A DNA stretch of 47,411 nt from Patescibacteria group bacterium (GCA_030917445.1 JAUPUR010000016.1:1-47411), one strand, 5' to 3'. Shown: positions 12,518-39,349, counted from the stretch's first letter. Notes: generated by a model from the letters alone, not told the origin. Numbers and translations are program-made.

Positions 12518-13597
12518 CTATGTACAGATCCCTTGGACAATACTTTCAAAAATATTTGCAAGCCTACTTACACCTCGTACTTCTACATCGTAATATGTAC
12601 TAGATTGGCCAGATGGTGTTGTTGCAACAGATTTCATCAGAGTTCGAAGTCTATCACTTGAATCTACAGGAGACACAAAATAACTATCATCTTCACCACT
12701 CCGAGTATCATAAACAACAACTGAGTAGACTTTACTTTCTCTCTTTAACTGAGCTGTTAAATCTGTACGTGGATCAAGCTCTCTTGCAAAACATTTTTGG
12801 TATGGTCCAGTTGATGTTTGTCTTACAGGTGAACATGAACCCAAATTTTGATCAACAATACTATCTGCGCCTGATCTTTCTGGAACGCCATCTGAAAAAA
12901 CTATTGTTACGTAGTTGTAATCACGAAAATACGATGTTCTTTCTTGAGCCCTATCAAGTCTATCTATAGCTACTTGAAAACCCTGACGCATATAGGTTCC
13001 CCCTAAACCTCCTTGAATAAGAGTATTGACTGCTTGATCAAAGGTAGTCTTATTATCTCTATATTTATTTAAGGCTACGATTTCACGAACACCTCTTGTA
13101 CTTCCATAAGAAAAATCTGTATATGAGCCAAAAGCATACAAACCAATTCCAGTCTCTGGTTGCAATTTATCCTTGAGTAATGTCAATGCACGCTTTAACT
13201 CAACGGTTTTATCTTCAAACTGCATTGAAGCGGATAAATCTGCCAAAACTAAAATTGCAGTTCTATTCAAGCAAGCAGTCGGTGTAACAGTAACTGAAGG
13301 TGACACTGAAGGAGAAGGAACAACCGTTATAGAAGGGATGCGTGTAGGTGTTGGGGTGAAGGTAGGAGTAGGTGAAGGCTTGATTCGAATATCGACTAAT
13401 TGGAGAGAATTTTCAGAACTTCGATTTGCTGACTCCTCATCAATAATTACTTGATCCGACGCTTTTGGATTTGGGCTCAATTGAGGAGTCAGTCCGCCTG
13501 TAAGAGCAAATGCACCAGCCATTGCTGTTGCTAAAATAAATAACACATAGATACTGCCACTTCCTCTAAATGTACGAAATAATAGTTTTCTTTTCAT
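12518..13597 (-). CDS. Membrane-anchored/secreted von Willebrand factor A (vWA) domain protein with Pro/Thr/Ser linker
   Basis: N-terminal TM/signal anchor, PT-rich linker (PSPTPTFTPTPTRIPS..SPSVSPSVTVTPT). MIDAS-type DxSxS (LVLADLSASM) and a downstream VTIVFSDGVPE. Confidence 0.75.
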   Translation of the reverse strand: MKRKLLFRTFRGSGSIYVLFILATAMAGAFALTGGLTPQLSPNPKASDQVIIDEESANRSSENSLQLVDIRIKPSPTPTFTPTPTRIPSITVVPSPSVSPSVTVTPTACLNRTAILVLADLSASMQFEDKTVELKRALTLLKDKLQPETGIGLYAFGSYTDFSYGSTRGVREIVALNKYRDNKTTFDQAVNTLIQGGLGGTYMRQGFQVAIDRLDRAQERTSYFRDYNYVTIVFSDGVPERSGADSIVDQNLGSCSPVRQTSTGPYQKCFARELDPRTDLTAQLKRESKVYSVVVYDTRSGEDDSYFVSPVDSSDRLRTLMKSVATTPSGQSSTYYDVEVRGVSRLANIFESIVQGICT

Positions 13598-13603
13598 ATC
13601 ACT

Positions 13604-13632
13604 ACTCTAAGAGCAACTCCATTTAGTGTCAA
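13604..13632 (-). promoter_or_regulatory. Putative promoter of the vWA gene (TTGACA-17-TAGAGT), -35 overlapping the upstream TGA stop
   Basis: Minus strand reads TTGACActaaatggagttgctctTAGAGTagtgatATG. The -10 box is 6 nt from the ATG. Confidence 0.4.
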
Positions 13633-16034
13633 GAAACAACGATATTAAATTCATTGTTTTCAACTGAAACAACAATGGTGCTCCCTCTCACTATTTCATT
13701 TGAAAGCATTTTTTTTGAAATGAGATCTTCAAGTGTATCTTGTATATAACGTCTTATTGGACGGGCACCGAACTGTGGATCAAATCCGTCAAGCGAAATT
13801 TTTTCTATCACTTTATCGCTAAATGAAATATTTATATCCTTTTCTTTCATTCTTAAAATAAGTTCTTCAAGAAGTAGCTTTGATATTTTTGCAAGCTCAT
13901 CAGTATTTAATGGTCTAAATGTCACAATATCATCAAATCTATTTAATAATTCTGGTTTAAATAACTGCTGAGTTTGAAGAAAATCTACAAGCTTTTTTGA
14001 ATCAAGAGTTCTTCCATTTTTAACTTCTTCGCTAATATACGCGGAACCAGCATTTGATGTTGCGATAATAATAGTATTAACAAAAGAGATAGTTCTACCC
14101 TTATTATCAGTGAGTCTTCCATCATCAAGTACTTGCAAAAAGAGATCTAAAATTCTTGGATGTGCTTTTTCAAATTCATCAAGAAGAACTAAAGAATAAG
14201 GATTGTCTTTTACCTTCTCTGTTAACTCACCTCGTTCGTCTCCATCACCAGGAGCTGAGCCTAACAATCTCTTTTCACCACTACTATCAGCGTATTCACT
14301 CATATCAAGCCGTATCATGGAGCGTGTCCCACCAAAATATATTTCAGAAAGTGTTTTTGCAGTCTCTGTTTTACCCACACCTGTTGGACCCAGGAATAGA
14401 AACGAAGTTGGGCGTTTTTTATCAACCATTCCTGATCGAAGTCTTCGAAGTGCCTGAGAAAGGACTTTAATAGCCTCATCTTGACCAACAATTTTTTTAT
14501 GAAGTGTTCCTTCTAGATTGAGCAGTAATTCTTTTTCTTTTTGATCTGGTTCAGAAAGTGCAATATGTGTCTTATCTTCAACAGACTTTGTCACTATTTC
14601 TGCTGTAACATATCTTTTTTTTGTAAAACTCATAACAGGGGAGGATGATTGGAGAACTCTTTCTGCAGTATCTTGAAGAAGTCTAATAGCACTTCCAGGA
14701 AGCTGCATATCTTGCATATATCTATCTCCTAGAGCAACTGCTGCAACAATCGCATTGTATGTAATTGCAATTGATGACCTTTTCTCAAGATCAGTACTAA
14801 ACTCCATCAACATTCTTCGAGCTAACTCTTCTTCAGGCTCGGTAAGAGTTATTGGAGTAAAAAGTTGAGCAAGTGGCTTACCTTCAAGGTAGGTTTTGAA
14901 ATTCCCTGGAGTAATGGATGCAACAATTGGAAATTCACCACTCTGTAAATATGGATACAGAGCTCCAGAAAGATCCATAGAGAATGATGAAGATCCTAAA
15001 ATGTCTTGCAATTCTGGGATATACATGATCACATTTCCTGAATGAGATACCTCTTCAATAATAGCTTGAAGCCTTGTTTCAAGATCTCCTCTGTTTGCTG
15101 CGCCTGCAATAAGTGGCCCTACAAGAATTTCAAGTATTTTCTTGTGTCTTGTATGTGGAGTACTTTTCCCTGTATAACTATCAATTGCAAAACGCCTCAT
15201 TATTCCTTCTTTTCCCGATCCTTGCTCACCAACGAGAAGAATATTATTGTTTTGTGGCTTTGCCAGTGTTTCTTGAAAAAGTTCAAACTCTTTCTCACGT
15301 CCGAAAACGGATGTATTTTTCTGCATTGCATCAAAACTAAAATCTCGGGTATATTTCTGAGTCTCAGGAGTCCATCCAGTTACTAGGCCATCTCCAACGC
15401 CACTACCACTTAAATGTACTTCTAATTTTTGAGGTTTCTCTTCATTCTGGAACTTGAACCTTGTCCATCTCAAAATATTCATAAAATCACTTTCTCTAAG
15501 TTTTTTTGAAAGAAGTAGTTTCACATCTTTCTCAACATACAGAATATATGCTGCTAAAATGTCTGCAGTCGTTATGTACGTTCCATCGACAGACTTTGCG
15601 AGTTTATAAGCGTATTTAATGAGAGTACCTGCATCGATTTGACTATGAGGCAATTCTTGAGGCGAAATCTGAGCTCTTTCAAGAAGAAAATGTGCTTGTT
15701 TTGTAGATAGTAAATGAACAACGAGGTCTTCAGCAGATTCTGAACTGTAGAGAGCATATAAAACAGCTTGAGTACATGCTGCAATCGCTTCCTCTTCATT
15801 TATATTTTGCAATGTCTGGGCAGGTTTTAAACGAGATACTTTGTAGCGATAAAAAATCTCTGTCATGAGAAAAATATTGAGAAAAAATAAAGGCAAACTA
15901 TAATCGCCTTGTTGTGACAAAACCCCAAAGAGAACCAGTAATAAACAAACAAAGATAAAAAGTCTGACCGTACGTACTAGTGCTGATCTATAAAAAGCAT
16001 AGAGAGTAATAAATTGTTTTTGTGACGCTACCAT
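13629..16034 (-). CDS. Membrane-anchored Hsp100/Clp-family double-AAA+ protein with degenerate D1 ring and no pore-loop aromatics
   Basis: Two N-terminal TM helices and a Clp_N-like repeat region. D1 Walker A is GEQGSGKEG (Thr->Glu), D1 Walker B is IMYIPELQ (Asp->Pro), and the D1 pore loop is AGAANRGDLE (no Tyr). D2 is intact for ATP binding (GPTGVGKT, LVLLDEFEKAHP, GARPIRR), but its pore loop is GSAPGDGDERGE instead of GAPPGYVGYEEGG. Confidence 0.85.
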   Translation of the reverse strand: MVASQKQFITLYAFYRSALVRTVRLFIFVCLLLVLFGVLSQQGDYSLPLFFLNIFLMTEIFYRYKVSRLKPAQTLQNINEEEAIAACTQAVLYALYSSESAEDLVVHLLSTKQAHFLLERAQISPQELPHSQIDAGTLIKYAYKLAKSVDGTYITTADILAAYILYVEKDVKLLLSKKLRESDFMNILRWTRFKFQNEEKPQKLEVHLSGSGVGDGLVTGWTPETQKYTRDFSFDAMQKNTSVFGREKEFELFQETLAKPQNNNILLVGEQGSGKEGIMRRFAIDSYTGKSTPHTRHKKILEILVGPLIAGAANRGDLETRLQAIIEEVSHSGNVIMYIPELQDILGSSSFSMDLSGALYPYLQSGEFPIVASITPGNFKTYLEGKPLAQLFTPITLTEPEEELARRMLMEFSTDLEKRSSIAITYNAIVAAVALGDRYMQDMQLPGSAIRLLQDTAERVLQSSSPVMSFTKKRYVTAEIVTKSVEDKTHIALSEPDQKEKELLLNLEGTLHKKIVGQDEAIKVLSQALRRLRSGMVDKKRPTSFLFLGPTGVGKTETAKTLSEIYFGGTRSMIRLDMSEYADSSGEKRLLGSAPGDGDERGELTEKVKDNPYSLVLLDEFEKAHPRILDLFLQVLDDGRLTDNKGRTISFVNTIIIATSNAGSAYISEEVKNGRTLDSKKLVDFLQTQQLFKPELLNRFDDIVTFRPLNTDELAKISKLLLEELILRMKEKDINISFSDKVIEKISLDGFDPQFGARPIRRYIQDTLEDLISKKMLSNEIVRGSTIVVSVENNEFNIVVS

Positions 16035-16357
16035 ATTAAGATGAGAACTGTTAAGACTGGAAAAAGTAAAAATCCACCCAAAAGAAAAAGCTCCACAAGT
16101 AACAATCCTGCAAATAATAAAAGATCTACTACTATGAATATTGTTTTTACAGCTATTCCCATCCCTAGTGAAAATCCAACAAGCCCTTTTCTGTATTCAT
16201 TTTTAAGCGGTTGAAAATAGGTTCTGAGAAAGAGTGGAAGTGAAAAGAGTTGAAAAAACGCTTGATTTAATGAAAGAAAATAATCAAGCATTCTCGAAGG
16301 TACCTCAAAATACCAAAACCTAAAGAAATATAATGGGAGTGTGAGCAGTAATGGCAT
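16028..16357 (-). CDS. Small polytopic membrane protein (hypothetical), 7-nt overlap with downstream Clp-like gene
   Basis: 109-aa hydrophobic ORF with ATG at 16357. Its stop TAG overlaps ATG 16034 (ATGGTAG). Confidence 0.5.
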   Translation of the reverse strand: MPLLLTLPLYFFRFWYFEVPSRMLDYFLSLNQAFFQLFSLPLFLRTYFQPLKNEYRKGLVGFSLGMGIAVKTIFIVVDLLLFAGLLLVELFLLGGFLLFPVLTVLILIW

Positions 16358-16400: not shown

Positions 16401-19055
16401 TTAGTTTACTGCAGCGGAAGCAGAGGGAACTGAAGGTTGTTGAGGTTCTTCTTTTTTCAAAAATGGCGGACTAAAATCTGGAGTAGCAAACTGAGCCTGC
16501 TCTTGTGGCAGCGGTAAAGATTGACCTACACTACTAGGTGATTGTGGAGGAGTAATAGGTTGAGGAATTGAAGAATCTACCACATCTGTTTTTATCTCAT
16601 TTGACTGAGTTGTCACTGTTGGAGACTGCTCTTGATTCACCTGTGTTCCAGCACCTTTTGCAAAAACAAAAGTTGCTTTTGTACTATCGTAATCAATAAG
16701 AATAGTATCTCCTGGTACAAATGATTTATTTATCAAGAGAAGTGCTATCTGATTCTCAATCGAAGTCTGTATCAATCTTCGAAGCGGACGAGCTCCATTC
16801 GCAGGATCGTATCCTTCATCAGCTAGTTGTGCAAGAGCTTTATCTGAAGTTTGAATATGATAACCTTGTTCTTCAAGAAGTTTGGCGGTTTTTGAAATAC
16901 CAAGCTTTGCGATTTGCGACATATCTTGTCTTCTCAAAGGTTTAAAGATCACAACATCATCAAATCTATTCAGAAGTTCTGGTCTAAAGAATTTTCTTAA
17001 TTCGCCATTTACCATACTTGATAATTCAGCAAATTGCTTATCAAAGCTTTCTTGTGTTGAACCTGATGGAGCTTCTGATTTTTCTGACAATTGTTGTTGA
17101 ATAAGAGCACTTCCAATATTTGATGTACAAATAACAATTGTATTCTTAAATGAGATTGTATTACCTTTATTATCAGTTAATCTGCCGTCTTCAAGAAGTT
17201 GAAGTAAAATATTGAATACATCAGGATGAGCTTTCTCAACCTCATCTAACAAAACTATTGAGTACGGTTTTGAACGAACTGCTTCTGTCAACTGTCCACC
17301 TTCTTCATATCCCACATAACCTGGAGGTGCCCCTATGAGCTTTGCAACTTCATGTTTTTCCATGTATTCACTCATATCTAATCTCACAAAAGCATCATCT
17401 TTGCCAAAAAGAAGTTCCGCTAATGCTTTTGCTAATTCAGTCTTTCCGACTCCTGTTGGACCAAGAAAAATAAATGAAGCGATTGGCCGATTTGCTGGAG
17501 CCAAACCGATTCTTCCACGTCTCACTGCTTCTGAAACGGCTTTTACTGCCTCGACCTGGTCAACGAGTCTCTCATGGATTTTGTCTTCCATCTTAAGTAG
17601 TTTTTGACTTTCATCTTCAGTTAGTTTTGTGATTGGAATTCCAGTCCAATCTGATACTACTTTTTCAATATCTTTTTTTACCACTTGGGTGTCTTGTCTT
17701 TTGCCTCCACCATTTGCAAGCTTCACTTCTGCAGCAGCCTCATCGAGAAGATCCACTGCCTTATCAGGAAGATATCGTTCTCCAATGTATTTTTTAGACA
17801 ATTTAACCGCAGCAACAAGAGTATCCTCTGGAAGCGTCACTCCGTGGAATTTCTCATATTTCCCCTTTAAAACTTTAAGCATTTCAACAGCAACATCTTC
17901 AGTTGGTTCTTCTGCAATAATTGGTTGGAATCGACGCTCAAATGCTTTATCCTTCTCAAAATGTTTTCTATATTCAGTTGTGGTCGTTGTACCAATAATC
18001 TGCATATGACCTCGTGCTAAATGGGGTTTTATTATATTGGATGCATCTAATGCTCCATCAGTATCACCAGCACCAATAAGAGTGTGAATTTCATCAATAA
18101 AAAGAATTATTTGACCTTCTGAAGCAATTGTTTCATTAATAACACCCTTCAACCTTTCTTCAAATTCTCCTCTATGTGACGCTCCCGCAACTAGTGAAGC
18201 AAGATCTAGTTGAAATATCTTTCTTCCACTTAATTCCTTTGGTACTTGAGATGAAACAATTTTAAGTGCAAGTCCCTCAACAATTGCTGTCTTTCCCACA
18301 CCTGCTTCTCCTATGATAATCGGATTATTTTTTGTTCTTCTCAGAAGGATATGAGTAAGTCTTTCTGTCTCTTTGTCTCGACCTGCAATTGGATCGAGTT
18401 TTCCTGCACGAGCCTCTTCAGTCAAATCAATAGCAAATTGTTCAAGGACAGATTTCTTTCCACCTTTTGCAAAGTTACCTGTTTTTGTGATCTTTTCAGT
18501 TAATGCCTGTCTTGATATTCCTTTATCTTGAATTTTCTTCGCAGCTTCGAGATCACTATTGCAAAACACAAGAAGTAAATCCTCTGGTGTCACAAAACTT
18601 GCATTTCTCCCCTCAGCCTCTCTATATGCTTTTTCAAAAAGTGCAGTTGAGTCATTACTCAAAGTTGGCTGACCACTAAAAGTCCCTAACTGCTCTTTGC
18701 CTTGAAGTTCTTGTGCGAGTTTTGCGACATCAACATCAAATTGTTCAAGGAGTTTAAAAACAGCTTCATCATACAAAAGCCCAATGAGTAACTGATCAGG
18801 TTCTATAAGTGGTTGTCTAATTCTTTTTGTCTCATCTTGGGCGTGATGAAGCACTTGAGTTGTCCGAGAATCAAGATGAGAAAGAGCTGATAAATTTTGT
18901 CTAAATGACGGATCCATCCGTGAACCTACAGCAGAAGACTGCCCAGGATCACTCGGCGGTGTTTGTGTATCGGAAGGAGTATTCTGATGAGTATTCTCAG
19001 GAATTTGTTGCTCTCCTTTTTGATCTTTATGTTGGCTGAACAGGTTACCAAGCAT
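16401..19055 (-). CDS. Hsp100/Clp-family double-AAA+ chaperone (ClpA-like architecture: no M-domain, no IGF/L ClpP loop) with disordered N- and C-terminal extensions
   Basis: Clp_N repeats. D1 has GEAGVGKTA and ILFIDEIHTLIGAG. D2 has GPTGVGKTE, VLLDEVEKAHPDVFN, GAPPGYVGYEEGG and GARPLRR. Only ~10 residues lie between DEAAAEVKL and VVSDWTGIP, where the ClpB M-domain would sit. Confidence 0.9.
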   Translation of the reverse strand: MLGNLFSQHKDQKGEQQIPENTHQNTPSDTQTPPSDPGQSSAVGSRMDPSFRQNLSALSHLDSRTTQVLHHAQDETKRIRQPLIEPDQLLIGLLYDEAVFKLLEQFDVDVAKLAQELQGKEQLGTFSGQPTLSNDSTALFEKAYREAEGRNASFVTPEDLLLVFCNSDLEAAKKIQDKGISRQALTEKITKTGNFAKGGKKSVLEQFAIDLTEEARAGKLDPIAGRDKETERLTHILLRRTKNNPIIIGEAGVGKTAIVEGLALKIVSSQVPKELSGRKIFQLDLASLVAGASHRGEFEERLKGVINETIASEGQIILFIDEIHTLIGAGDTDGALDASNIIKPHLARGHMQIIGTTTTTEYRKHFEKDKAFERRFQPIIAEEPTEDVAVEMLKVLKGKYEKFHGVTLPEDTLVAAVKLSKKYIGERYLPDKAVDLLDEAAAEVKLANGGGKRQDTQVVKKDIEKVVSDWTGIPITKLTEDESQKLLKMEDKIHERLVDQVEAVKAVSEAVRRGRIGLAPANRPIASFIFLGPTGVGKTELAKALAELLFGKDDAFVRLDMSEYMEKHEVAKLIGAPPGYVGYEEGGQLTEAVRSKPYSIVLLDEVEKAHPDVFNILLQLLEDGRLTDNKGNTISFKNTIVICTSNIGSALIQQQLSEKSEAPSGSTQESFDKQFAELSSMVNGELRKFFRPELLNRFDDVVIFKPLRRQDMSQIAKLGISKTAKLLEEQGYHIQTSDKALAQLADEGYDPANGARPLRRLIQTSIENQIALLLINKSFVPGDTILIDYDSTKATFVFAKGAGTQVNQEQSPTVTTQSNEIKTDVVDSSIPQPITPPQSPSSVGQSLPLPQEQAQFATPDFSPPFLKKEEPQQPSVPSASAAVN

Positions 19056-19094: not shown

Positions 19095-22000
19095 TTATGT
19101 TTTCTCTTCTGCCTCAAGTGAAGGATTTAATATCTCTGATTTTTTTATTGAAATGTCTACTTTTGTCTCCTCACCCTCTTCTATTGCTTTAAGTGTTTCA
19201 AGCGCCATTTTTCCAGCCTCAAGTTTTGCTTTCAAATATCCTATGACTTCTTCTTTACTAAATCCACCTATCAGGAGGAAAGGGAGAATATCTCGAACAA
19301 GATCTAGTCCGTCCTGCACATCATTTGGATTTGAAGATGACAGAAGATTTATTACATCAGTGATTTGTTTTTGATCACCTTGAATCCACTCTTCTCTTGT
19401 TTGCTCATTTTCGCCAAGTTTTGGAACATCTGAATGAAGATAAATTTCGTACCACATCTTTTTCACAGCTTCATAATCATCAAGACTTACCTGCTGCAAT
19501 CGATTTTGAAGTGGGAGTATAAAAGGAGAGAATTTTTTTGATCTTTGTTTTTTATCAAAACCGTCAATAATTCTTGAAGCTATCGGATGCTTCAAACCTT
19601 TTTCCTTAATTACTTCTTTATAAAAACTCATGGTTTTATCAATTGTTTCTTTTGATGGAGTAAGAAGTGTCATAACAATATACTGAGCAAGTGGATCTCC
19701 ACTCTCAGACGATTTCATAACGAAGGTTTGAAGTTCATTTGCTTTCTCCTCGGTCAATGTCCCTTTTGTCATCTGCAAAAGTTGAGAAGCAAACTCGTGT
19801 GAACTTTCTTCTTGATGAAGTCTCTCTATGAGTTTGGTTATCTCTATCTTCTCAGTTGCAGTCCCTATTTCCTGTGGACGAGATAATTTATTTGCAAACC
19901 GTATCATCTCATTTCCTTGAAGTTGTCTCACTTCTTGAATAAAATTATTTAATCTCTCTACAAAAGCATCCTGCTTAAGTTCTGATGAATGAAGAGTTTT
20001 TTGAATTTCTTTTTCATCAGATGACAAGGTGTCTGTATTTGTTTGATTGACTGAATTTTCTACAAATTGAAAGAATGTTAATGCCTCACTCTCAGATAAT
20101 GATTCACTCTCTGTAAGTGATGTTGCACTGAGAAGTGACTCAGCAGTTTTATTCCCTTTACTACTTTCCCTTTGGAGTTGTTGACGGATCTGTTCATATT
20201 TTTCTTTTTCAGATGGTATTAACGTCTCAGGATGTGCGAGTGATGATAATACTTGAGAAACAATATGATCTTGTGAATTATTTTTTTCGTATTTTTCTTT
20301 TTCGAAAATCACAATATCTTTCATTGTTGGAAGTGTTAAATTTACAAGATTTAATATATCCCCATCATTTTGTATATTTGATGTGGAAACTGGAGATGAA
20401 TTAATAAGAGTTGGAGAAGTTAAAATTGAATCTGTCTGTGGTCTATCTGACGAATCTGATATTTCTCGTGCAACATCTGCAGACATATGCCTAACAGTTT
20501 GCGTTGATTTTCTCTCAGTATCAAGTAAAGTTTCATCTTCTTCAATTTCTTCCTGAACATCTTCCATAACACTTTTTCCAGCTTCAAGTTTTGCTTTCAA
20601 ATATGCAACTATCTCTGTTTGACTAAATCCACCTATGAGTAGGAAAGGCAATATATCTGCAACTTCTTTCATACCTTCTTCAATATCTGATTCATTTTGT
20701 GAAGTAAGGAGGCTAATCGTTTTTTCTATCTCAGTCATATCAGACGTAATCCATTCTTTGCGTGTTTGTCTTCCATTAATATTTTCAGGGACATCTAATT
20801 CTTTATAATTTTCTTTCCACATCTTTTTTACAGCTTCATAGTCATCAAGACTTACTTGCTGTATTCTGTTTACAACAGGGAATGTGCCCGCCTTAGCTTT
20901 TACTGTTGCAGACAATGGAACGGAGACCATTGTTGATTGCTTCTGAGAGATAAGTCCAAGAAGTAGTGTTGCAAGTGGATCACCTTGTTTCTTTGCTTCC
21001 TCAAGTTGAGTTCTTATTTTTTCTGAATCCCAATCTGCTGTGCTTGTTGAATTCTGAGTTCTTTGAAGAATTTCAGTCGCTAAAGGATTATTCTGACTGC
21101 TTGATTGAAGTAACTCTGTATGTATATTCTGTATATCTTGTACTGATAGTTTGTTCTCAATTGATTTAACAATTTTTGTTGCTGTCTGATTTCCTGATTT
21201 ACTTTCTTTAATAAGTTTTTCGTAAAGACTTTGATACTGTATACGCTCTTTTTCATTCTGAATTAACTCTGAGTGTGTTATCTTCTCGAGAACATTTGTT
21301 AAAGCAACTGTTTGAGAGACTTGAGACGAGGAAGCAGTTTTCAGGATTTCAGTCGCTAAAGGATTCCCTAGTGACTGTGCCTTTATTAATTCTTGCTGTA
21401 CGAATTTCACCTGCTCAACTGAGGTAGACTTATCTAGTGACTCTTTAATCAATGTTGCTAATTGATTTCCTGATCGACTTGCGTCAGTTATTTTTTCACG
21501 AAGTTTCTCGTATTGTACTCTCTCTTTTTCAGTTGAAATTTTTTCGGTATTTGATAACTTTTGAAGAACAGATTGTAGTGAAGTTTGCTCTTTTGTTTCA
21601 TTAGTGACAGAGGAAATATTACTTAAAATTGTTTTGACATACTCCTTACTCGAATTTGAAACAGTATTTAATTTTTCTCTTATCTCAATAATTTTTTCTC
21701 TTTCTGATGTATTGGTGACAGTAGATGGATTTGCTAATTGTTGAAGAATTGTTTGAAATGATTGATTAGATTGTGTTGAAGTATTACTTGATGAATACGA
21801 GGCAATTGTTCCAGCTGCATTGAGAATTGATGTAGAAATCTGATCTCCCTGCTTACTTTGTGCAACTAAGCTTTCTCGAATTTGTCTAAATCTTTCTCTC
21901 TCAGCAGGTGTAGATACTTGTGTTGGATTTGCAATATTTTTAAGGATATTACTCGTTCTTTCTTTTTCTCTCTGTAATACTGCTTTACTTGTTATCTTTT

Positions 22001-23357
22001 CTTTTTCAAACCGGGCAATATCTCTCATGGTAGGGATAGATAGTGAAGTGAGTTGTGATATCTTTGTTGTTTGTGAGCGAGCAATAGACGTTGGTCTATT
22101 AACTTGAGTTTTTTGTGAGATTGATGTTGCACGAGGAATCTCGCGCGCAAGACCTGTATTCGCAGGCGCAGTATATTTTCGAGCAAAAGGAAGATTGCGT
22201 GCAAGACCTGTATTCGCAGGTCCAACCGGTACAATAGGTGTTTTTGGATTTGCAGGTGGAATTATACGTGAATTTATAAGACCTAACATCTGTTTGTATG
22301 CTGGGCTTTCTCTATAATTAAATGACATCATATAGTCTAAAAATATTTGTAAGAGAATAAATGGCAGAATTATTACAATCCAAAGCATAATCAATGAAAC
22401 CAAGTAAAGAGCAAATGTATCGGGGAGATTGACACTATTATTAATGCCAACCTTTTGTCCTGGTCCACCAAGGAGAATATTGACAGCTGTTGGATAGATT
22501 ATTTGAGATTTATCACCGATCCCTGCAGGATTGAAAAAAAGTGGAAGACTTGTCTGCCATAATCTCACAAGTCCTGAAAGAAATATCGCAAACAGCGGAG
22601 CATACATTAGCCATCTAAAAAATTCACCAATCCAAATCTTCCCTGTATTTCTGACAGGATAAAAAAGTAGAAGTATAGGAAAAACAGGCGAAATAATAAG
22701 GAAAAACCATAAAATAATCTTTCTGATAATGAGGAGAATTGCCATCACGTAATACGTAAAAGCAGTTAGCTTTACAAAAAGTAGTGAGGTGAAAGCTGTT
22801 TCGTCAAATTCTGTTCCAAACCGCCGTAGTCCCTCAAATGTTCGATAATCAAATCCAATAAAGAGTAAATCTCTTGATGAAATAATAGCTCCTTGAGGGT
22901 TACGCAAGAAAAATCCTTGAAAGATATCAATAATTTGATACAAAAACTGCACGAGTGAAAATGAAAATGTAACAAGTAAAATGACAAGGAGGAATCTAGG
23001 TAAAAATCTTTTAGCTGACAAGCTTTTTCCTCGTGTCACAATAAGAATAAATGAGGTGATCATAATAACCACAAGGAAAAGCGCAAAGACTATTCTCTGG
23101 ACAACCTGCCAAAATGGAATAAGTGGATTTGTAGCATTATCATAATTTTGCGCAGTCCATCGATAATCTCTCAATGTCCAATCAAGAAGCATTCCTGATC
23201 GCGATGCATTTTTACCAATTTTTGTCACCTCTGCGTCTCTTATCCAGGCTCCAACTTGTGGAAGCTCATCTTCTTGAGCGTGTACTGGTTGAGGAATCAA
23301 GAAAAAGATAAACGCAATACTCAGTACAAGTAATAATTTAGGCAGCAGTAATTTCAT
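19095..23357 (-). CDS. Giant (1420 aa) polytopic membrane protein: signal peptide, ~6-8 TM N-terminal domain (possible VirB6/TrbL-like role), ~1050-aa repetitive helical extension
   Basis: Signal peptide MKLLLPKLLLVLSIAFIFFLIPQPVHAQ and a hydrophobic block to ~aa 345. Ser/Thr/Gln/Glu/Lys-rich repeats and a duplicated 117-aa domain follow. The ATG is 2 nt after the stop of the pilin-like gene. Confidence 0.85.
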   Translation of the reverse strand: MKLLLPKLLLVLSIAFIFFLIPQPVHAQEDELPQVGAWIRDAEVTKIGKNASRSGMLLDWTLRDYRWTAQNYDNATNPLIPFWQVVQRIVFALFLVVIMITSFILIVTRGKSLSAKRFLPRFLLVILLVTFSFSLVQFLYQIIDIFQGFFLRNPQGAIISSRDLLFIGFDYRTFEGLRRFGTEFDETAFTSLLFVKLTAFTYYVMAILLIIRKIILWFFLIISPVFPILLLFYPVRNTGKIWIGEFFRWLMYAPLFAIFLSGLVRLWQTSLPLFFNPAGIGDKSQIIYPTAVNILLGGPGQKVGINNSVNLPDTFALYLVSLIMLWIVIILPFILLQIFLDYMMSFNYRESPAYKQMLGLINSRIIPPANPKTPIVPVGPANTGLARNLPFARKYTAPANTGLAREIPRATSISQKTQVNRPTSIARSQTTKISQLTSLSIPTMRDIARFEKEKITSKAVLQREKERTSNILKNIANPTQVSTPAERERFRQIRESLVAQSKQGDQISTSILNAAGTIASYSSSNTSTQSNQSFQTILQQLANPSTVTNTSEREKIIEIREKLNTVSNSSKEYVKTILSNISSVTNETKEQTSLQSVLQKLSNTEKISTEKERVQYEKLREKITDASRSGNQLATLIKESLDKSTSVEQVKFVQQELIKAQSLGNPLATEILKTASSSQVSQTVALTNVLEKITHSELIQNEKERIQYQSLYEKLIKESKSGNQTATKIVKSIENKLSVQDIQNIHTELLQSSSQNNPLATEILQRTQNSTSTADWDSEKIRTQLEEAKKQGDPLATLLLGLISQKQSTMVSVPLSATVKAKAGTFPVVNRIQQVSLDDYEAVKKMWKENYKELDVPENINGRQTRKEWITSDMTEIEKTISLLTSQNESDIEEGMKEVADILPFLLIGGFSQTEIVAYLKAKLEAGKSVMEDVQEEIEEDETLLDTERKSTQTVRHMSADVAREISDSSDRPQTDSILTSPTLINSSPVSTSNIQNDGDILNLVNLTLPTMKDIVIFEKEKYEKNNSQDHIVSQVLSSLAHPETLIPSEKEKYEQIRQQLQRESSKGNKTAESLLSATSLTESESLSESEALTFFQFVENSVNQTNTDTLSSDEKEIQKTLHSSELKQDAFVERLNNFIQEVRQLQGNEMIRFANKLSRPQEIGTATEKIEITKLIERLHQEESSHEFASQLLQMTKGTLTEEKANELQTFVMKSSESGDPLAQYIVMTLLTPSKETIDKTMSFYKEVIKEKGLKHPIASRIIDGFDKKQRSKKFSPFILPLQNRLQQVSLDDYEAVKKMWYEIYLHSDVPKLGENEQTREEWIQGDQKQITDVINLLSSSNPNDVQDGLDLVRDILPFLLIGGFSKEEVIGYLKAKLEAGKMALETLKAIEEGEETKVDISIKKSEILNPSLEAEEKT
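19155..19505 (-). repeat. Copy 2 of intragenic 117-aa domain (NRLQQVSLDDYEAVKKMW..ILPFLLIGGFS..YLKAKLEAGK)
   Basis: Similarity to 20520-20870 is visible at both protein and DNA level. Example: cagcttcataatcatcaagacttacctgctg versus cagcttcatagtcatcaagacttacttgctg. Confidence 0.9.
20520..20870 (-). repeat. Copy 1 of intragenic 117-aa domain (NRIQQVSLDDYEAVKKMW..ILPFLLIGGFS..YLKAKLEAGK)
   Basis: Same length as, and colinear with, 19155-19505. The offset is 1365 nt. Confidence 0.9.
22147..22220 (-). repeat. Direct 20-bp repeat gcaagacctgtattcgcagg, two copies 54 nt apart (encodes PANTGLAR twice)
   Basis: Exact copies at 22147-22166 and 22201-22220, inside the giant ORF just after its TM domain. 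Confidence 0.9.
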
Positions 23358-23359
23358 TT

Positions 23360-23665
23360 TTATCGGGAAAATCCAGGTATAGCTAAAATATCAATCAATA
23401 CAACCTCAATAAAGAGATATCCAAAAATTGCAAGAAGAAGACCCAAGATTGCATAAAAAATATAACTTTTACCTGAGTTGATCTGAGAAGGATTCCCCCT
23501 TGATGTTAAAATGACATACCCGCCAATTATGACGAAAAGAAGTGCAACTCCCCCAATAAGACTCAGTCCAATAGTATAAAATCTTCCGATAAATTGAATT
23601 GGATCAATAGGCAGACACCCTATCTGGGTCATTGTTTCATTGACTGGGCACATAACATACAGCAA
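23360..23665 (-). CDS. T4SS-pilin-like (VirB2/TrbC-type, CPR 'T4SS_pilin' family) two-TM miniprotein
   Basis: CP..GCLPIDP..F cysteine motif, then TM1 (LSLIGGVALLFVIIGGYVIL), TSRGNP, and TM2 (IFYAILGLLLAIFGYLFIEVVL). No room for a signal peptide, because a stop lies immediately upstream. The start is TTG 23665, or ATG 23653 or 23632. Confidence 0.6.
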   Translation of the reverse strand: MLYVMCPVNETMTQIGCLPIDPIQFIGRFYTIGLSLIGGVALLFVIIGGYVILTSRGNPSQINSGKSYIFYAILGLLLAIFGYLFIEVVLIDILAIPGFSR

Positions 23666-23731: not shown

Positions 23732-24601
23732 TTAAAACCAACTTTTTTTACCATTTTCTTTTTCAAAATTCTCTAGAAGTTCTTTTTGTTTTTTGTTAAC
23801 AGACTTTGGAATAACAATTTTAACTCTGACATAATGATCACCTTTATTTGTACTTTGAAGTCGCTGAACACCCTTTCCCCTCAATCGGATGAGAGTCTCA
23901 GGTTGAGTTCCTGGAGGAATCTTAATACTAATTTTTTCATCGATTGTCTCAATCTCGACTGTATCTCCTAATACTGCTTGAGGAAATGATATTTCTTCAA
24001 TGGTAACGATATCAGATCCCTCCCTCTGAAATCTTTTATCAGCAGCTACATCAAACACAAGATCAAATTCACCAAACCTCATTCTCACTCCCGTATCAAC
24101 ACCAGGAGGAATTTTTATTTTTTGTTTTTTTCCATCAATATTTACTTCTTTTTCAGCTCCTTTAATTGCTTCTTGGAATGTAAGGGAAAGTGAGTATACT
24201 GGCCTTCTTTGACGGCTACCAAACGGTGATGCTCCACCAAAAAATTGTTCAAAAATATCAAATGGATCTGAAAATCCTCCAAAATCCTGAGATTGACCGT
24301 TTCCGCCTGTTGAATATGAATAAGAGAATGGCCCATAGCGGCCACCCTGCCCACCAAAAGGACCACCAGCTCCAGCATTTTCAAATGCGGCTTCACCATA
24401 CTGATCATATGCTTGACGTTTACTCACATCAGACAAAACTTCATAAGCCTTTGTAATTTCTTTAAATTTACTTTCTCCTTCTTTTGTTTTATTTCGATCA
24501 GGATGATACTGAAGAGCAAGTTTCCGATATGCCTTTTTTATCTCATCTTGAGTTGCTGATTTAGCGACACCTAAAACTGAATAATAATCATTACTTGCCA
24601 T
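23732..24601 (-). CDS. dnaJ: J-domain co-chaperone, class B architecture (J domain, G/F region, C-terminal domains, no zinc finger)
   Basis: [21 protein letters not shown], then a G/F-rich stretch. The whole 289-aa product has zero cysteines, so the CxxCxGxG repeats are absent. Confidence 0.9.
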
Positions 24602-25034
24602 TTGCTTGTTCTCCTTCTTGGTTTTTTCTTTTCTTTGAATTCAGTCTCGTATTTTCTTTTGCTGTATCAAGTGCCACTCTAATTTCAGCCACCATTTTAC
24701 TCCATTGTTCAGGCGACATCCGACGAGTTGGTTCAACTGGTGTCAATGTCTGATCACTTAACCATGATGGTTCTTTCTCATTGAATGTGTCTTCTCTATC
24801 AGTTTCACGACTAACTTCAGTATTTGGGTTCGCCAGCAGAGCTCGCTCCTTGTGAAGTCTATCTATTTCATCTCGTTGTGTTGAAAAAGGTTGTCCCATA
24901 TTACTTAATCTATCAATTTCTTCGCCGATAAGGTAAATCTGAGTATCAATTTTCTCAATTCTTTGTATTACGTCATTATCAAGTGAAATAGGAGTCAGAG
25001 GAGGCTCAACGAATTCGTTATTTTTTTCCGTCAT
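24591..25034 (-). CDS. Hypothetical 147-aa charged/coiled-coil protein inserted between dnaK and dnaJ
   Basis: The ATG at 25034 overlaps the dnaK 3' end by 17 nt (ATGACGGAAAAAAATAA). The stop overlaps the dnaJ start by 11 nt. Without this ORF there would be an untypical ~416-nt gap. I recognise no motif. Confidence 0.55.
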
Positions 25035-26919
25035 CAACAACTTCTCCTTCCACCGGCTCATCAGATGATTTTGCCTCGGAAGAAGTATCTGAAGCATCTT
25101 GTGTTTCAGAAGGTTGCTCAGCTTGAGGGTTTTGAGACATTGCTTGCCCGACTTTCTGAAGACTTTCTGAAAGTTCCTGTGTTTTTGTCTGTAACTCTTC
25201 TTTTGTTCCAGTATCTAAAATTCCTTTTAGATTTGAGATTTTCTCACCTACTTCTTTTTTGAGATCTTCACTGACTTTATCTCCTGCATCTTTAAGAGAT
25301 TTTTCAGAAGTAAATATCAATGCATCTGCCTGATTTTTAGCTTCAATTTGCTCTTTCTTTTCTTCATCTTCCTTTGCATGGAGTTCTGCTTCTTTGGTCA
25401 TTCTTTCAACTTCCTCTTTTGATAGGCCTGTTGAACCTGTAATTTTGATACTTTGCTCTTTTCCAGAAGCTTTATCTTGAGCTTTTACATGTAAAAGTCC
25501 ACTTGCATCAATATCAAAGGTAACTTCAACCTGTGGCATTCCTCGAGGAGCAGGTGGAATACCGTCTAAAATAAATCTACCGAGTGACTTATTATCCTGA
25601 GCCATAGGGCGCTCTCCTTGCAAAATATTAATTTCCACTTGAGTTTGATTGTCAGACGCAGTTGAGAAAACTTGAGATTTGGATGTTGGGATGGTGGTAT
25701 TTCGTGGAATAAGTGGTGTAGATACTCCTCCAAGTGTTTCAAGTCCAAGAGTTAAAGGTGTGACATCTAAAAGAAGGACATCTTTGACATCACCTGAAAG
25801 TACTCCACCTTGTACTGCAGCTCCAATTGCAACAACTTCATCTGGGTTAACAGATTTATTTGGCTCTTTCCCAAAGAATTGAGAAACAGTTTCAACGATT
25901 TTTGGCATCCTTGTCATACCACCTACAAGTACAACCTCATCAATATCTGCTGCCTTCAGTGACGCATCACTGAGAGCTTTTTCAACTGGTTTAAGTGTTT
26001 TCTGAATAAGTTCATCAACAAGACTCTCTAACTTTGCCCGTGAAAGTGTCATGGTCAGATGAAGAGGACCTGCTGATCCTTGAGTAATAAATGGCTGATT
26101 GATTTGAGCTTCTTGAGAAACAGAGAGTTCAATTTTTGCTTTTTCAGCAGATTCTTTCAATCTTTGAAGTGCTTGTGGATCCTGTCTTAAGTCCACAGAA
26201 TTTTCCTTCTTAAATTCATCAGCAATATAATCGATTATAACTTGATCAAAATCATCTCCCCCAAGATGAGTATCTCCATTTGTGGACTTAACTTCAGTTA
26301 CTCCATCGCCAAGTTCAAGGATTGAGATATCAAATGTACCTCCACCTAGATCATAAACTGCAATTGTATGTGCATTTTTCTTATCAAGTCCATATGCAAG
26401 AGCTGCAGCAGTTGGTTCATTAATAATTCTCTTAACTTCAAGTCCAGCAATTTCTCCTGCCTGCATCGTTGCTTGTCTCTGACTGTCGTCAAAATATGCT
26501 GGAACAGTAATAACCGCTTCTGTTACTTTTTCACCAAGATAACTTTCCGCGTCAGCCTTTATTTTTTGAAGTATTTGTGCAGAAATTTCTTGAGGTGTGT
26601 ATGTTTTTCCATCTACTTCAACAACTGCCATATCATCTCTTCCGGCTTTGACAGTATAAGGAAGAAGTTTTATGTCTTTCTGTACGGAAGCATCACTAAA
26701 TTTTTTCCCCATAAGACGTTTGACAGAAAAGATTGTTTCTCTTGGCTTCAAAACCATCTGACGTTTTGCAACGTCTCCCACAACATGTGTTTTAGGATCT
26801 ACAACTGATGGAATAACATTTCTTCCTTCAGCTGAATGAATAACTTTGGGAGATCCTCCCTCCATTACTGCGACACATGAGTTTGTTGTACCTAAATCAA
26901 TTCCAATTATTTTTCCCAT
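25018..26919 (-). CDS. dnaK: Molecular chaperone DnaK (Hsp70)
   Basis: [31 protein letters not shown]. 633 aa. Confidence 0.97.
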
Positions 26920-26925
26920 AATTTA

Positions 26926-27390
26926 TTATTCCTTTTCTCCATTCCCAACGATTACTTGAGCTGGTCTTAAGAGCTTATCATGTAAGAGGAACCCTGCACG
27001 TACCTCTGATATAACAACCTCTTTTTCTCCATTTTGTGTTGTAATAACTTCCATGTGAGTAGGATCAAAATGTTGACCGATAGTCTCCATTCGAATTATT
27101 CCTTCTCTTTTAAGCGTATCTAGAAATTGTTGAGTACAGATCTTAAGCGTTTGATCTTCACTATGCAGACCTGCCATAAGTAATGTATCCAAAATTGGCA
27201 AAAATCGCAAGATTATATCTTTATTCGCTGATCTTATGAGATCGCCTCTTTCATCTCTAACCCGCTTTTCAAGGTTCTGATAATCAGCCAGTGCTCTTTT
27301 GTACTTGTTCTCCCATTCGCTTATCTGATCATCTTGAATTTCTTCTTCTTTTTCTTCTTCGTCTTGAATTTGTGTTGTATCGTCTGTCAT
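26926..27390 (-). CDS. grpE: Nucleotide exchange factor GrpE
   Basis: ALADYQNLEKRVRDE coiled coil and a C-terminal beta domain. ATG 27390 lies 1 nt after the hrcA stop, and the longer ORF-track start would overlap hrcA. Confidence 0.9.
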   Translation of the reverse strand: MTDDTTQIQDEEEKEEEIQDDQISEWENKYKRALADYQNLEKRVRDERGDLIRSANKDIILRFLPILDTLLMAGLHSEDQTLKICTQQFLDTLKREGIIRMETIGQHFDPTHMEVITTQNGEKEVVISEVRAGFLLHDKLLRPAQVIVGNGEKE

Positions 27391-27391
27391 T

Positions 27392-28129
27392 TTACCAACC
27401 CTTTGCCATTGATTCAATAAGTGTTCCAAAATAACGAACTGTTGGAACTACCGTCGTGTAATTTAACCTTACAGGACCGATGACGCCAATTTCTCCAGAA
27501 CCATGCTCTGGTGTCTCATAATGAGTAAATACAAAACTATATGGACCTGTCAACTCCTGTCCAAGCTCATCCCCCATCAATATATAAATATCCTCACCCA
27601 TGGTTGCATACGGTTGTTTACATAATTTATGAAAATAATCGTATTCATCAAGCGTTGAAAGTAAAGCTTTTGTGATATCTATATCAAAAAACTCTGGCAT
27701 ATCTAAAATGTTTGCATATCCTGAGGTAAGAACATCACCTTCATTTGTTGTTGCAATTGCAAGTGCACCTGTTTTATGTGCAAGTGATTTTGTTGCTTCT
27801 TTTAAAAATCGCTGCATAGTCTCACGGTAGTCCCAAATTTTTTCTTTGAGCGCAACTTCCTCAACTGTTGAAAGGACTTTCTCTTTCATTAACTCTTTTA
27901 CATAAAATTTCATTCCCATTGGAGTAGGCACACGACCTGCGGATGAATGAAGCTTTTTTAAGTAACCAAGTTCTGAAAGTCTTACCATTTCATTTCTGAT
28001 TGTGGCTGGTGATGCACTTAGACTATACTTCTTTTCTAAAGTCTCAGATCCCACAGCATCAGCTGTATTAATATATTCTTCAATAATTGCTTTTAAAATA
28101 TGTACCTGTCTTTGTGTAAGATTATGCAT
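27392..28129 (-). CDS. hrcA: Heat-inducible transcription repressor HrcA (short, 245 aa)
   Basis: LTQRQVHILKAIIEEYINTADAVGSETL..SPATIRNEMVRLSELGYL..HSSAGRVPT. A cognate CIRCE element lies directly upstream. Confidence 0.9.
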   Translation of the reverse strand: MHNLTQRQVHILKAIIEEYINTADAVGSETLEKKYSLSASPATIRNEMVRLSELGYLKKLHSSAGRVPTPMGMKFYVKELMKEKVLSTVEEVALKEKIWDYRETMQRFLKEATKSLAHKTGALAIATTNEGDVLTSGYANILDMPEFFDIDITKALLSTLDEYDYFHKLCKQPYATMGEDIYILMGDELGQELTGPYSFVFTHYETPEHGSGEIGVIGPVRLNYTTVVPTVRYFGTLIESMAKGW

Positions 28130-28144
28130 AAATGTAATACAGAA

Positions 28145-28171
28145 TTAGCACTATAATATCAGGAGTGCTAT
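28145..28171 (-). promoter_or_regulatory. CIRCE operator (HrcA binding site)
   Basis: TTAGCACTA-TAATATCAG-GAGTGCTAT versus consensus TTAGCACTC-N9-GAGTGCTAA (16/18 arm positions). It begins 15 nt upstream of the hrcA ATG and overlaps the -10 box. Confidence 0.88.
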
Positions 28172-28181
28172 TTTTTGTCAA
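28153..28181 (-). promoter_or_regulatory. Promoter of hrcA-grpE-dnaK operon (TTGACA-17-TATTAT)
   Basis: Minus strand reads TTGACAaaaaatagcactcctgaTATTAT. Interleaving with CIRCE is the classical arrangement. Confidence 0.55.
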
Positions 28182-39324: not shown

Positions 39325-39349
39325 GTGCTTTATTATAAGTGATTGCTCG

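Follow-up and report, generated by a model that had tools for sequence, protein, structure and literature searches.

Here, a membrane-anchored derivative of the Clp/Hsp100 ATPases, termed Q801, is described together with TM109, a small membrane protein whose gene overlaps its own. Both are encoded on a 47,411-nt stretch of DNA from a Patescibacteria group bacterium (GCA_030917445.1 JAUPUR010000016.1:1-47411), the whole of which is referred to below as the window. We propose that the two proteins form a membrane complex of Levybacteria that is driven by the second AAA+ module (D2) of Q801, acts non-processively and serves proteostasis; this combined statement is given a probability of roughly 0.5. 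The anatomical conclusions on which it is built, i.e. the domain anatomy, the motif states, their conservation and the coupling to TM109, can be held with high confidence. The module consists of the following features, with the evidence for each in brackets (ORF, open reading frame; AF2, AlphaFold2).

16028..16357, minus strand: TM109, a 109-aa small membrane protein (ORF call)
16028..16034, minus strand: 7-nt stop/start overlap of TM109 and Q801, ATGGTAG (sequence)
13629..16034, minus strand: Q801, an 801-aa membrane-anchored Clp/Hsp100 derivative (Pfam, NCBIfam, PDB alignments, AF2, Foldseek)
15837..15974, minus strand: predicted N-terminal transmembrane (TM) hairpin of Q801, aa 21-66 (family hydropathy and charge, AF2)
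15450..15797, minus strand: Clp_N-like N-domain of Q801, aa 80-195, eight helices (partial ClpA-model alignment, AF2)
14640..15308, minus strand: first AAA+ module (D1) of Q801, aa 243-465, a predicted conserved pseudo-ATPase (alignments, family motif states)
13632..14504, minus strand: D2 AAA+ module and D2-small domain of Q801, aa 511-801 (Pfam, alignments, family motif states)

Domain anatomy and motif states of Q801

Q801 contains two tandem AAA+ modules in the class-I Clp/Hsp100 arrangement, with a Pfam match to AAA_lid_9 (1.9e-8) after D1, and matches to AAA_2 (1.3e-47) and ClpB_D2-small (2e-21) in D2. Motifs were read from a HMMER alignment to Bacillus subtilis ClpC and from an alignment to the neighbouring 884-aa Hsp100 paralogue. 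In D1, the Walker A motif is GEQGSGKE, compared with GEPGVGKT in ClpC, placing Glu where Thr is expected; Walker B is IMYIPELQ instead of ILFIDELH (Asp to Pro) and the pore loop is AGAANRG instead of AGTKYRG (Tyr to Asn). These three losses had been proposed in a preliminary description of the window, made from the sequence before any alignment, and both alignments bear them out; that description did not mention the D1 Arg fingers, which are also lost (ERRF to AQLF). D2 retains GPTGVGKT, LLDEFEKAH, TSN, NRFD and GARPIRR, i.e. Walker A and B, sensor 1, the Arg finger and sensor 2 are all intact. The D2 pore loop reads GSAPG--DGDERGE against GSPPGYVGYDEGGQ in ClpC, so GYVGY is replaced by G-D-G-D-E with a deletion of two residues. 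The same combination of a retained catalytic site and a lost GYVGY had been claimed beforehand and is upheld by the ClpC alignment.

The position of the M-domain in ClpC and ClpB corresponds to Q801 residues 461-473, and the span from D1-small to the D2 Walker A motif is 104 aa, which leaves no room for an M-domain. Scores against the NCBIfam models lie well under their cut-offs: 471 of 1232 bits for ClpB (TIGR03346), 415 of 993 for ClpA (TIGR02639) and 383 of 885 for TssH (TIGR03345). The N-domain is less distinct. Pfam does not detect Clp_N in Q801, and the ClpA model TIGR02639 gives a partial alignment that starts only at residue 106 (model position 50), while the AF2 model has eight helices at residues 80-194 in a pattern consistent with the double four-helix repeat of Clp_N. 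The proposed order of Clp_N, D1 and D2 is thus established for the two AAA+ modules by Pfam and alignment, and its Clp_N part, drawn from the partial alignment and the modelled helices, is tentative. The AF2 model, built from a 94-sequence alignment, comprises the hairpin, the N-terminal helices, D1 and D2, with a predicted local distance difference test score (pLDDT) of 86 and a predicted template modelling score of 0.75. Foldseek superimposes it on ClpC and ClpB protomers taken from hexamers with a template modelling score of ~0.83, at ~4.7 Å over ~590 columns.

The linker between the N-domain and D1, normally variable and flexible in Hsp100 proteins, carries the motif GWTPET(K/Q)(K/N)(Y/F), which is invariant and family-specific in Q801 orthologues. 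In the window it lies in a longer element, G.G...L..GWTPETKKYT (residues 212-229, ~15348-15401), whose invariant Trp is close to the presumed ring entrance.

The membrane anchor

Hydropathy averaged over the family has two peaks, at about residues 21-41 and 45-62 (Q801 numbering), and both are conserved across the family. The pair is flanked on either side by net positive charge, +1.8 ahead of it and about +2.3 behind it, and the loop between the helices is short and neutral; the topology predicted from this is a hairpin whose N- and C-terminal ends are both cytoplasmic. Helices 18-40 and 46-66 of the AF2 model correspond to this hairpin, in which R24 and E59 are nearly invariant. Hydropathy, charge and model thus agree with the two N-terminal TM helices originally suspected. 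By homology, such an anchor would place the N-domain/D1 face of Q801 at the membrane.

Conservation and distribution of the Q801 family

A database search recovered 206 full-length relatives of ~800 aa and 44-98% identity. Those with a name come from Levybacteria or 'Patescibacteria group' metagenome-assembled genomes and are annotated only as Clp ATP-binding subunit. Furthermore, a scan of GTDB with the motif GWT[PLI]ET[KQ][KN][YF] yielded 99 confirmed species-level Q801 loci. The TM109-Q801 pair is confined to Levybacteria and their nearest relations within Microgenomatia (Patescibacteria). Many of the GTDB loci (L004, L006-L010 and others) are titled 'uncultured Gammaproteobacteria bacterium' and carry a Patescibacteria-type locus with the same synteny, as do single records titled 'Lysobacterales' and 'Methylomirabilota' for the TM109-Q801 locus; these taxonomic labels are probably wrong.

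Motif states were counted in 185 distinct orthologues. In D1, the Walker B Asp is found in none and is replaced by Pro in 179 (family pattern LYIPEFQ), and the Walker A Thr is Glu (GKE) in 142 (family pattern GxxGxG[KR]E); Arg at the Arg finger positions and an aromatic residue in the pore loop each occur in 0/185. In D2, by comparison, the Walker A Lys and the Walker B Asp and Glu are invariant and the Walker A Thr/Ser nearly so; the sensor 1 Asn and the Arg finger (R699) are each present in 184/185 and the sensor 2 Arg in 181/185. The D2 pore-loop aromatic survives in a single orthologue (1/185). This loop is two residues short in 163 members, and in another 21, from several sub-clades, it is shortened by a further 2-11 residues (4-13 below canonical). 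The ClpP-docking tripeptide [LIVM]G[FLM] was not found between D2 sensor 1 and the Arg finger in any orthologue (0/185).

Mean pairwise identity is 0.52 in D1 and 0.68 in D2. D1 also possesses invariant motifs of its own, e.g. EEVSHAGNVILYIPEFQN, and is therefore under selection. On this pattern, D1 is maintained as a pseudo-ATPase scaffold and D2 as an ATPase, with pore loops that are not selected for an aromatic grip, and the motif losses are family traits instead of signs of decay. The earlier suggestion that substrates are not handled in the canonical way is a reasonable one in the light of a seemingly dead D1 and non-aromatic loops throughout the 185 orthologues.

TM109 is the constant partner of Q801

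All 121 homologues of TM109 are ~109 aa long and all are named hypothetical. Pfam searches with TM109 alone and with 91 members returned nothing credible, and a Foldseek search of the PDB with its model gave no fold match at E<=0.001. An exhaustive HMMER search of 1.84 billion representatives gave only 65 matches, nearly all of them small standalone proteins. The AF2 model (pLDDT 95) has two long helices, residues 4-45 and 57-108, which are separated by an invariant basic loop (T46, P50, K52-N53-E54-Y55-R56, G58); the hydrophobic stretch of the protein holds an invariant K71 and a nearly invariant E89.

TM109 lies directly upstream of Q801 in 78 loci, among them every locus in which TM109 is an ORF of its own and enough upstream sequence is available. 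The two genes most often overlap by 4 nt (25 loci) or are joined at +1 (17 loci), and most other junctions fall within 11 nt. In the window, the ATG of Q801 is part of ATGGTAG, whose TAG is the TM109 stop codon, exactly the 7-nt overlap initially reported, and this arrangement is consistent with translational coupling. Meanwhile, TM109 and Q801 are fused in frame in two loci, L073 and L058, with N bases in neither gene. The two fusion proteins are 48% identical and the closest relative of L058, L075 (73%), is unfused; the fusions therefore arose independently. When a large protein database was searched with the N-terminus of the L073 fusion, one partial match was obtained, and such fusions are therefore rare. 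Both lack the N-tail and the first TM helix of the ATPase and have a single, i.e. the second, TM helix left between the two parts, which would imply that the C-terminus of TM109 is on the extracytoplasmic side. The fusions are Rosetta-stone evidence that TM109 and Q801 form one complex. The coupling to a small membrane protein, at first a statement about one genome, is thereby extended to the family by conserved adjacency, tight overlaps and two independent fusions: TM109 is an orphan family and the obligate partner of Q801.

Genomic context

The neighbourhood of the module in the window contains the following features.

12518..13597, minus strand: vWA protein, 359 aa, with a metal ion-dependent adhesion site (MIDAS) and an N-terminal anchor, context outside the module (Pfam VWA)
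16401..19055, minus strand: 884-aa soluble Hsp100 paralogue, context (Pfam, alignments, synteny)
19095-23665, minus strand: pilin-like gene and 1420-aa protein, between dnaJ and the 884-aa Hsp100 (sub-threshold Pfam)
23732..28171, including CIRCE, minus strand: hrcA-grpE-dnaK-dnaJ heat-shock genes, context (Pfam)
23732-24601, minus strand: dnaJ
27392-28129, minus strand: hrcA
28145-28171, just upstream of hrcA: CIRCE (HrcA operator), two mismatches, TTAGCACTATAATATCAGGAGTGCTAT

The G+C content of the window is ~37%, and in the part that holds TM109-Q801 every gene read, up to 28129, is on the minus strand, in the order hrcA, grpE, dnaK, dnaJ, pilin-like gene, 1420-aa protein, 884-aa Hsp100, TM109, Q801, vWA, nusA and a short infB. 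Synteny across loci gives the recurrent order hrcA-grpE-dnaK-dnaJ, an optional block of the pilin-like, giant membrane and 884-aa genes, TM109-Q801, a variable slot, and nusA-infB, with TM109-Q801 downstream of the hrcA-grpE-dnaK-dnaJ string in most loci. CIRCE and the best sigma-70-like promoter (TTGACA-17-TATTAT, extended by TG) overlap, both within 28145-28181, and five related loci have CIRCE-like sites that lie upstream of hrcA or at least in that region. Promoter and terminator scans gave counts that were not above shuffled expectation; two promoter sites alone stood out, that of hrcA and one ahead of the vWA gene. A 168-aa ORF without a Pfam match (24591-25097, minus strand), at most a candidate gene, separates dnaK from dnaJ and shares ~80 nt with the dnaK 3' end.

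Upstream neighbours were counted in the 49 loci with 9-10 kb of upstream sequence. A gene of the 884-aa type is present within 10 kb upstream of TM109-Q801 in 34 of these and absent from that region in 15, where dnaJ often abuts TM109. Where it is present, the genes for the pilin-like and the giant membrane protein accompany it in 33 of 34 loci, and the trio of pilin-like, 1420-aa and 884-aa genes recurs in 33/49. The preliminary description called the upstream Hsp100 canonical-looking. It is indeed adjacent, and all of its catalytic motifs and the D2 GYVGY loop are intact; however, it has neither an M-domain nor a ClpP-docking loop, and its D1 pore loop is AGASHRGEFE, with His in place of Tyr in 39/40 orthologues. 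The 884-aa protein is thus an atypical Hsp100, distinct from standard ClpB, ClpC or ClpA. Some of its orthologues are 1200-1500 aa long.

The pilin-like gene encodes 101 aa and matches Pfam T4SS_pilin, the pilin of type IV secretion systems (T4SS), with E=9e-6, just below the cut-off. The polytopic 1420-aa protein has a sub-threshold match to TrbL/VirB6 (E=0.002), and no VirB4 was found in the window. VirB6 homologues are reported to be scarce or highly divergent in Microgenomatia (PMC12102498), and the 1420-aa protein could be such a highly divergent VirB6. By eye, its translation (19095-23357, minus strand) contains a module of ~110 aa twice, at residues ~800-930 and 1290-1400, both occurrences reading QQVSLDDYEAVKKMW ... 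ILPFLLIGGFS ... YLKAKLEAGK, as well as many repeats of a motif resembling ERxxY..LRE..SGNQ.AT. A BLAST self-comparison of the protein printed no off-diagonal match.

Downstream, the vWA gene begins 31 nt after Q801. Its product has a Pfam VWA match (E=1e-7), a MIDAS motif that reads DLSAS and a hydrophobic anchor at its N-terminus, in keeping with the MIDAS-containing vWA protein noted there at the outset. Homologues follow Q801 in only 6 of the 63 loci with downstream sequence, the closest relatives among them, and nusA comes directly after Q801 in 24 loci. Pfam searches of ten other downstream neighbours gave TIR, IS1595 transposase, TPR, M48/S26 peptidase and Nramp domains, three domainless proteins and one SdrD/VWA surface protein (L020). 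The slot between Q801 and nusA is a variable hot spot (12518-13597 in the window; L011, L020, L022, L027, L042, L049, L054), in which PMT and TPR genes are also seen. In addition, a promoter-like TTGACA-17-TAGAGT precedes the vWA gene (13632-13604). The trio of small membrane protein, anchored Clp protein and vWA protein therefore does not hold together as first supposed: the first two are adjacent in 78 loci, and the vWA gene is outside the TM109-Q801 module.

The PADLOC matches of Q801 (DolB / PDC-M37B, 1e-36) do not extend beyond the generic D2 region, and the 884-aa paralogue gives them as well; neither TM109 nor the vWA protein has a PADLOC match. The matches were set aside as generic, and the housekeeping synteny of TM109-Q801 argues against a defence island.

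Two further genes of the window merit a brief mention. A 386-aa AAA+ protein (4964-6124, minus strand) has the Lon lid domain and lacks the Lon protease domain; its gene adjoins that of RNase J here and in the locus of a relative of 45% identity (L003 20504-21568). A class-I lysyl-tRNA synthetase (tRNA-synt_1f; 37066-39369, minus strand) ends in a B3_4 domain, whose usual place is the beta subunit of phenylalanyl-tRNA synthetase.

Proposed function and alternatives

Since Q801 has no aromatic paddles, no ClpP loop and no M-domain, its motifs make it an unlikely candidate for an unfoldase that threads processively, for the partner of a protease or for a disaggregase of the ClpB type. In the model proposed here, Q801 would be descended from an Hsp100 without an M-domain and would form, with TM109 as second subunit, one membrane complex. 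The presumed hexameric double ring would be held with its N-domain/D1 face at the cytoplasmic side of the membrane by the TM hairpin of each subunit, D1 serving as a conserved, catalytically dead scaffold and D2 as the sole motor. ATP hydrolysis in D2 could then drive rigid-body movements of the ring, and by these movements proteins of the membrane or envelope, or else TM109, would be remodelled, held or released where the ring meets the membrane. A role in membrane-proximal proteostasis is proposed because of the fixed position after hrcA-grpE-dnaK-dnaJ. Such a complex might work in the manner of a Torsin with membrane cofactors, in a geometry like that of FtsH or Msp1. We infer the hexamer, the orientation, an ATPase activity confined to D2, the non-threading action and the proteostasis role.

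Several points weigh against this proposal. The oligomeric state and the orientation are extrapolated from homologues, and the C-terminal 50-residue hydrophobic stretch of TM109 may be long enough to span the membrane twice instead of once. Non-aromatic loops serve for translocation in some AAA+ motors, and the 12-residue form of the D2 loop that most members have (PGxGxERGELT) is conserved in its own right; some contact with substrate in the pore could therefore still take place. As for proteostasis, CIRCE scans never placed the operator directly upstream of TM109-Q801, and the link to heat-shock control is therefore only positional. Furthermore, the order of many housekeeping genes is conserved in such compact genomes, and synteny with dnaKJ and nusA may mirror ancestry instead of function. 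Beyond the proposal as stated, a further reading can be offered tentatively: TM109-Q801 might be a hitherto unknown sort of prokaryotic AAA+ machine, a membrane-integrated, non-threading Hsp100 in which the live D2 moves its own hairpin and TM109 as an ATP-driven membrane actuator or gate, a bacterial counterpart of Torsin-cofactor systems, or it might be the motor of a Clp-powered envelope conduit together with the pilin-like and VirB6-like genes.

Among the alternatives, one raised in the preliminary description is that Q801 serves as a tether to the membrane, or as a regulatory subunit, and enters mixed hexamers with the 884-aa Hsp100 and either recruits this unfoldase to the membrane or damps its activity. 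Only TM109 separates the two genes in the window, the 34/49 loci with a nearby 884-aa type fit such a pairing, the proteins are 36% identical across both rings, both lack the M-domain (D1-D2 span 103-104 aa), and the lost D1 Arg fingers of Q801 would change the D1 site of a neighbouring subunit. Nevertheless, TM109-Q801 is intact in the 15/49 loci without a nearby 884-aa gene, Q801 has a complete D2 catalytic site of its own, and its constant partner is TM109, whereas the 884-aa gene goes together with those for the pilin-like and the giant membrane protein; mixed hexamers are accordingly unlikely. A threading extractase for membrane proteins, similar to FtsH or Msp1 and gripping through non-aromatic pore contacts or the invariant GWTPET Trp at the ring entrance, would suit the N-terminal anchor with its entry face towards the membrane, the conservation of the 12-residue D2 loop and of GWTPET, and the intact D2 motor. 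It is doubtful, and somewhat more so than mixed hexamers, with aromatics absent from both loops in essentially all members, the D2 loop nearly deleted in 21, a D1 unable to give power strokes, and neither a protease nor a downstream acceptor in evidence. Still less credence can be given to a role in which TM109-Q801, together with the pilin-like protein, the VirB6/TrbL-like protein and the 884-aa ATPase, energises an envelope transport or assembly module and the TM helices make up a conduit over the AAA+ pore. The pilin-like and 1420-aa genes do lie ahead of the two Hsp100 genes, here as in 33/49 loci, each protomer pair would contribute two TM helices from Q801 and at least two hydrophobic helices from TM109, and VirB6 is reported to be scarce or highly divergent in Microgenomatia (PMC12102498). 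Yet both T4SS matches are under the Pfam thresholds, the block is not beside TM109-Q801 in 15/49 loci, with dnaJ directly before TM109, there is no pore-loop grip on a threaded substrate, and with the D1 face, the substrate entry side of Hsp100 proteins, at the membrane, threading would run from membrane to cytoplasm and not outward.

Two other readings have very little left to recommend them. The pairing of Q801 with the downstream vWA surface protein as a MoxR-type AAA+/vWA couple, raised in the preliminary description, is highly improbable and largely refuted by missing conserved synteny: the MIDAS vWA gene is 31 nt away in the window, homologues occur in the closest relatives and one more VWA-containing surface protein was seen in L020, but at 6/63 loci the association is rare, the slot otherwise being taken by TIR, transposase, TPR, peptidase or Nramp genes or skipped by nusA, the vWA gene has its own promoter-like site, and the vWA protein is predicted to be extracytoplasmic and the ATPase cytoplasmic. 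The idea that Q801 is a decaying, non-functional Hsp100 duplicate has the loss of many canonical motifs in its favour and is the least credible of all; full-length intact ORFs in at least 99 species-level genomes, invariant D2 catalytic residues, conserved family-specific D1 and linker motifs, and a TM109 that is conserved and twice fused speak against it, and a pseudogene is ruled out by this conservation pattern. The reading preferred here remains that of a D2-driven, non-processive complex of Q801 and TM109.

Comparison with known systems and significance

Threading by aromatic pore loops is usually illustrated with Hsp100 motors, and in the Q801 family, widespread and strongly conserved within a single lineage, nature provides a test of a Clp ring without threading. 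Its current annotation as 'ATP-dependent Clp protease ATP-binding subunit' is probably misleading. Little is known of the cell biology of Patescibacteria, in which the TM109-Q801 pair also points to a function in membrane proteostasis or at the envelope that is particular to one lineage. No description of the family was found in the literature on Patescibacteria ClpB and AAA+ proteins of the candidate phyla radiation, membrane-anchored Hsp100, degenerate Hsp100 paralogues, Levybacteria chaperones or Microgenomates T4SS, and a paper on Patescibacteria T4SS does not mention Clp (PMC12102498).

Q801 shares with class-I Clp/Hsp100 proteins the order of D1, D2 and D2-small behind a tentatively assigned N-domain, an intact D2 catalytic site, and its best sequence and fold matches, which are to ClpC and ClpB. 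It differs from them in the TM hairpin, the obligate small membrane partner, the apparently dead D1, the non-aromatic pore loops and the missing ClpP loop. Compared with a functional unfoldase of this class, it has neither a competent D1 nor the aromatic pore loops (D1 KYR, D2 GYVG). ClpB and Hsp104 have the M-domain, their DnaK coupling element, which Q801 lacks, and Q801 falls short of the ClpB equivalog score; ClpA, like Q801, is without an M-domain. The [LIV]-G-[FL] ClpP-docking loop of ClpA, ClpC and ClpE occurs in none of the 185 orthologues. Q801 is also below the TssH cut-off that would mark it as ClpV/TssH, and no type VI secretion genes were found among the window ORFs scanned with Pfam.

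The N-terminal membrane anchor of FtsH and Msp1/ATAD1 puts the entry face of the ring against the membrane, and the anchor of Q801 would do the same. FtsH has two TM helices per subunit, small membrane partners and an M41 protease domain; Q801 has a comparable TM hairpin, but no M41 domain, and its AAA modules are of the Clp type. FtsH and Msp1/ATAD1 belong to the classical AAA clade, have a single ring and carry aromatic residues in their pore loops. Plant SMAX1/D53-type ClpB-like proteins are soluble nuclear regulators that have the double Clp-type architecture with degenerate motifs and do not act as unfoldases. SMAX1 (9kkx) is among the weak PDB matches of Q801, which has the same architecture and likewise degenerate motifs, but differs in its intact D2 site and its predicted embedding in the membrane. 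The likeness to MoxR-vWA systems is confined to an AAA+ gene beside a MIDAS vWA gene in the window, Q801 being of the Clp type and not MoxR (AAA_3/AAA_5).

Torsins are eukaryotic ATPases of the endoplasmic reticulum and the nuclear envelope. They are Clp-related, associate with the membrane via an N-terminal hydrophobic segment, have no aromatic pore loops and need membrane-protein cofactors (PMC5425593). They consist of a single AAA+ module, are luminal and lack an Arg finger of their own, which is supplied by the degenerate AAA+-like cofactor LAP1 or LULL1 (PMC5425593). Non-aromatic loops and membrane association are common to Torsins and Q801; by contrast, Q801 has two modules, retains the D2 Arg finger R699 in 184/185 orthologues and is predicted to be cytoplasmic, and TM109 is a helical hairpin that is not AAA+-like. 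The likeness is best taken as analogy, without homology beyond the superfamily. Q801 is structurally a class-I Clp/Hsp100 protein, and not FtsH, MoxR or Torsin, and TM109-Q801 could provide a tractable bacterial parallel to the unexplained mechanism of the Torsins.

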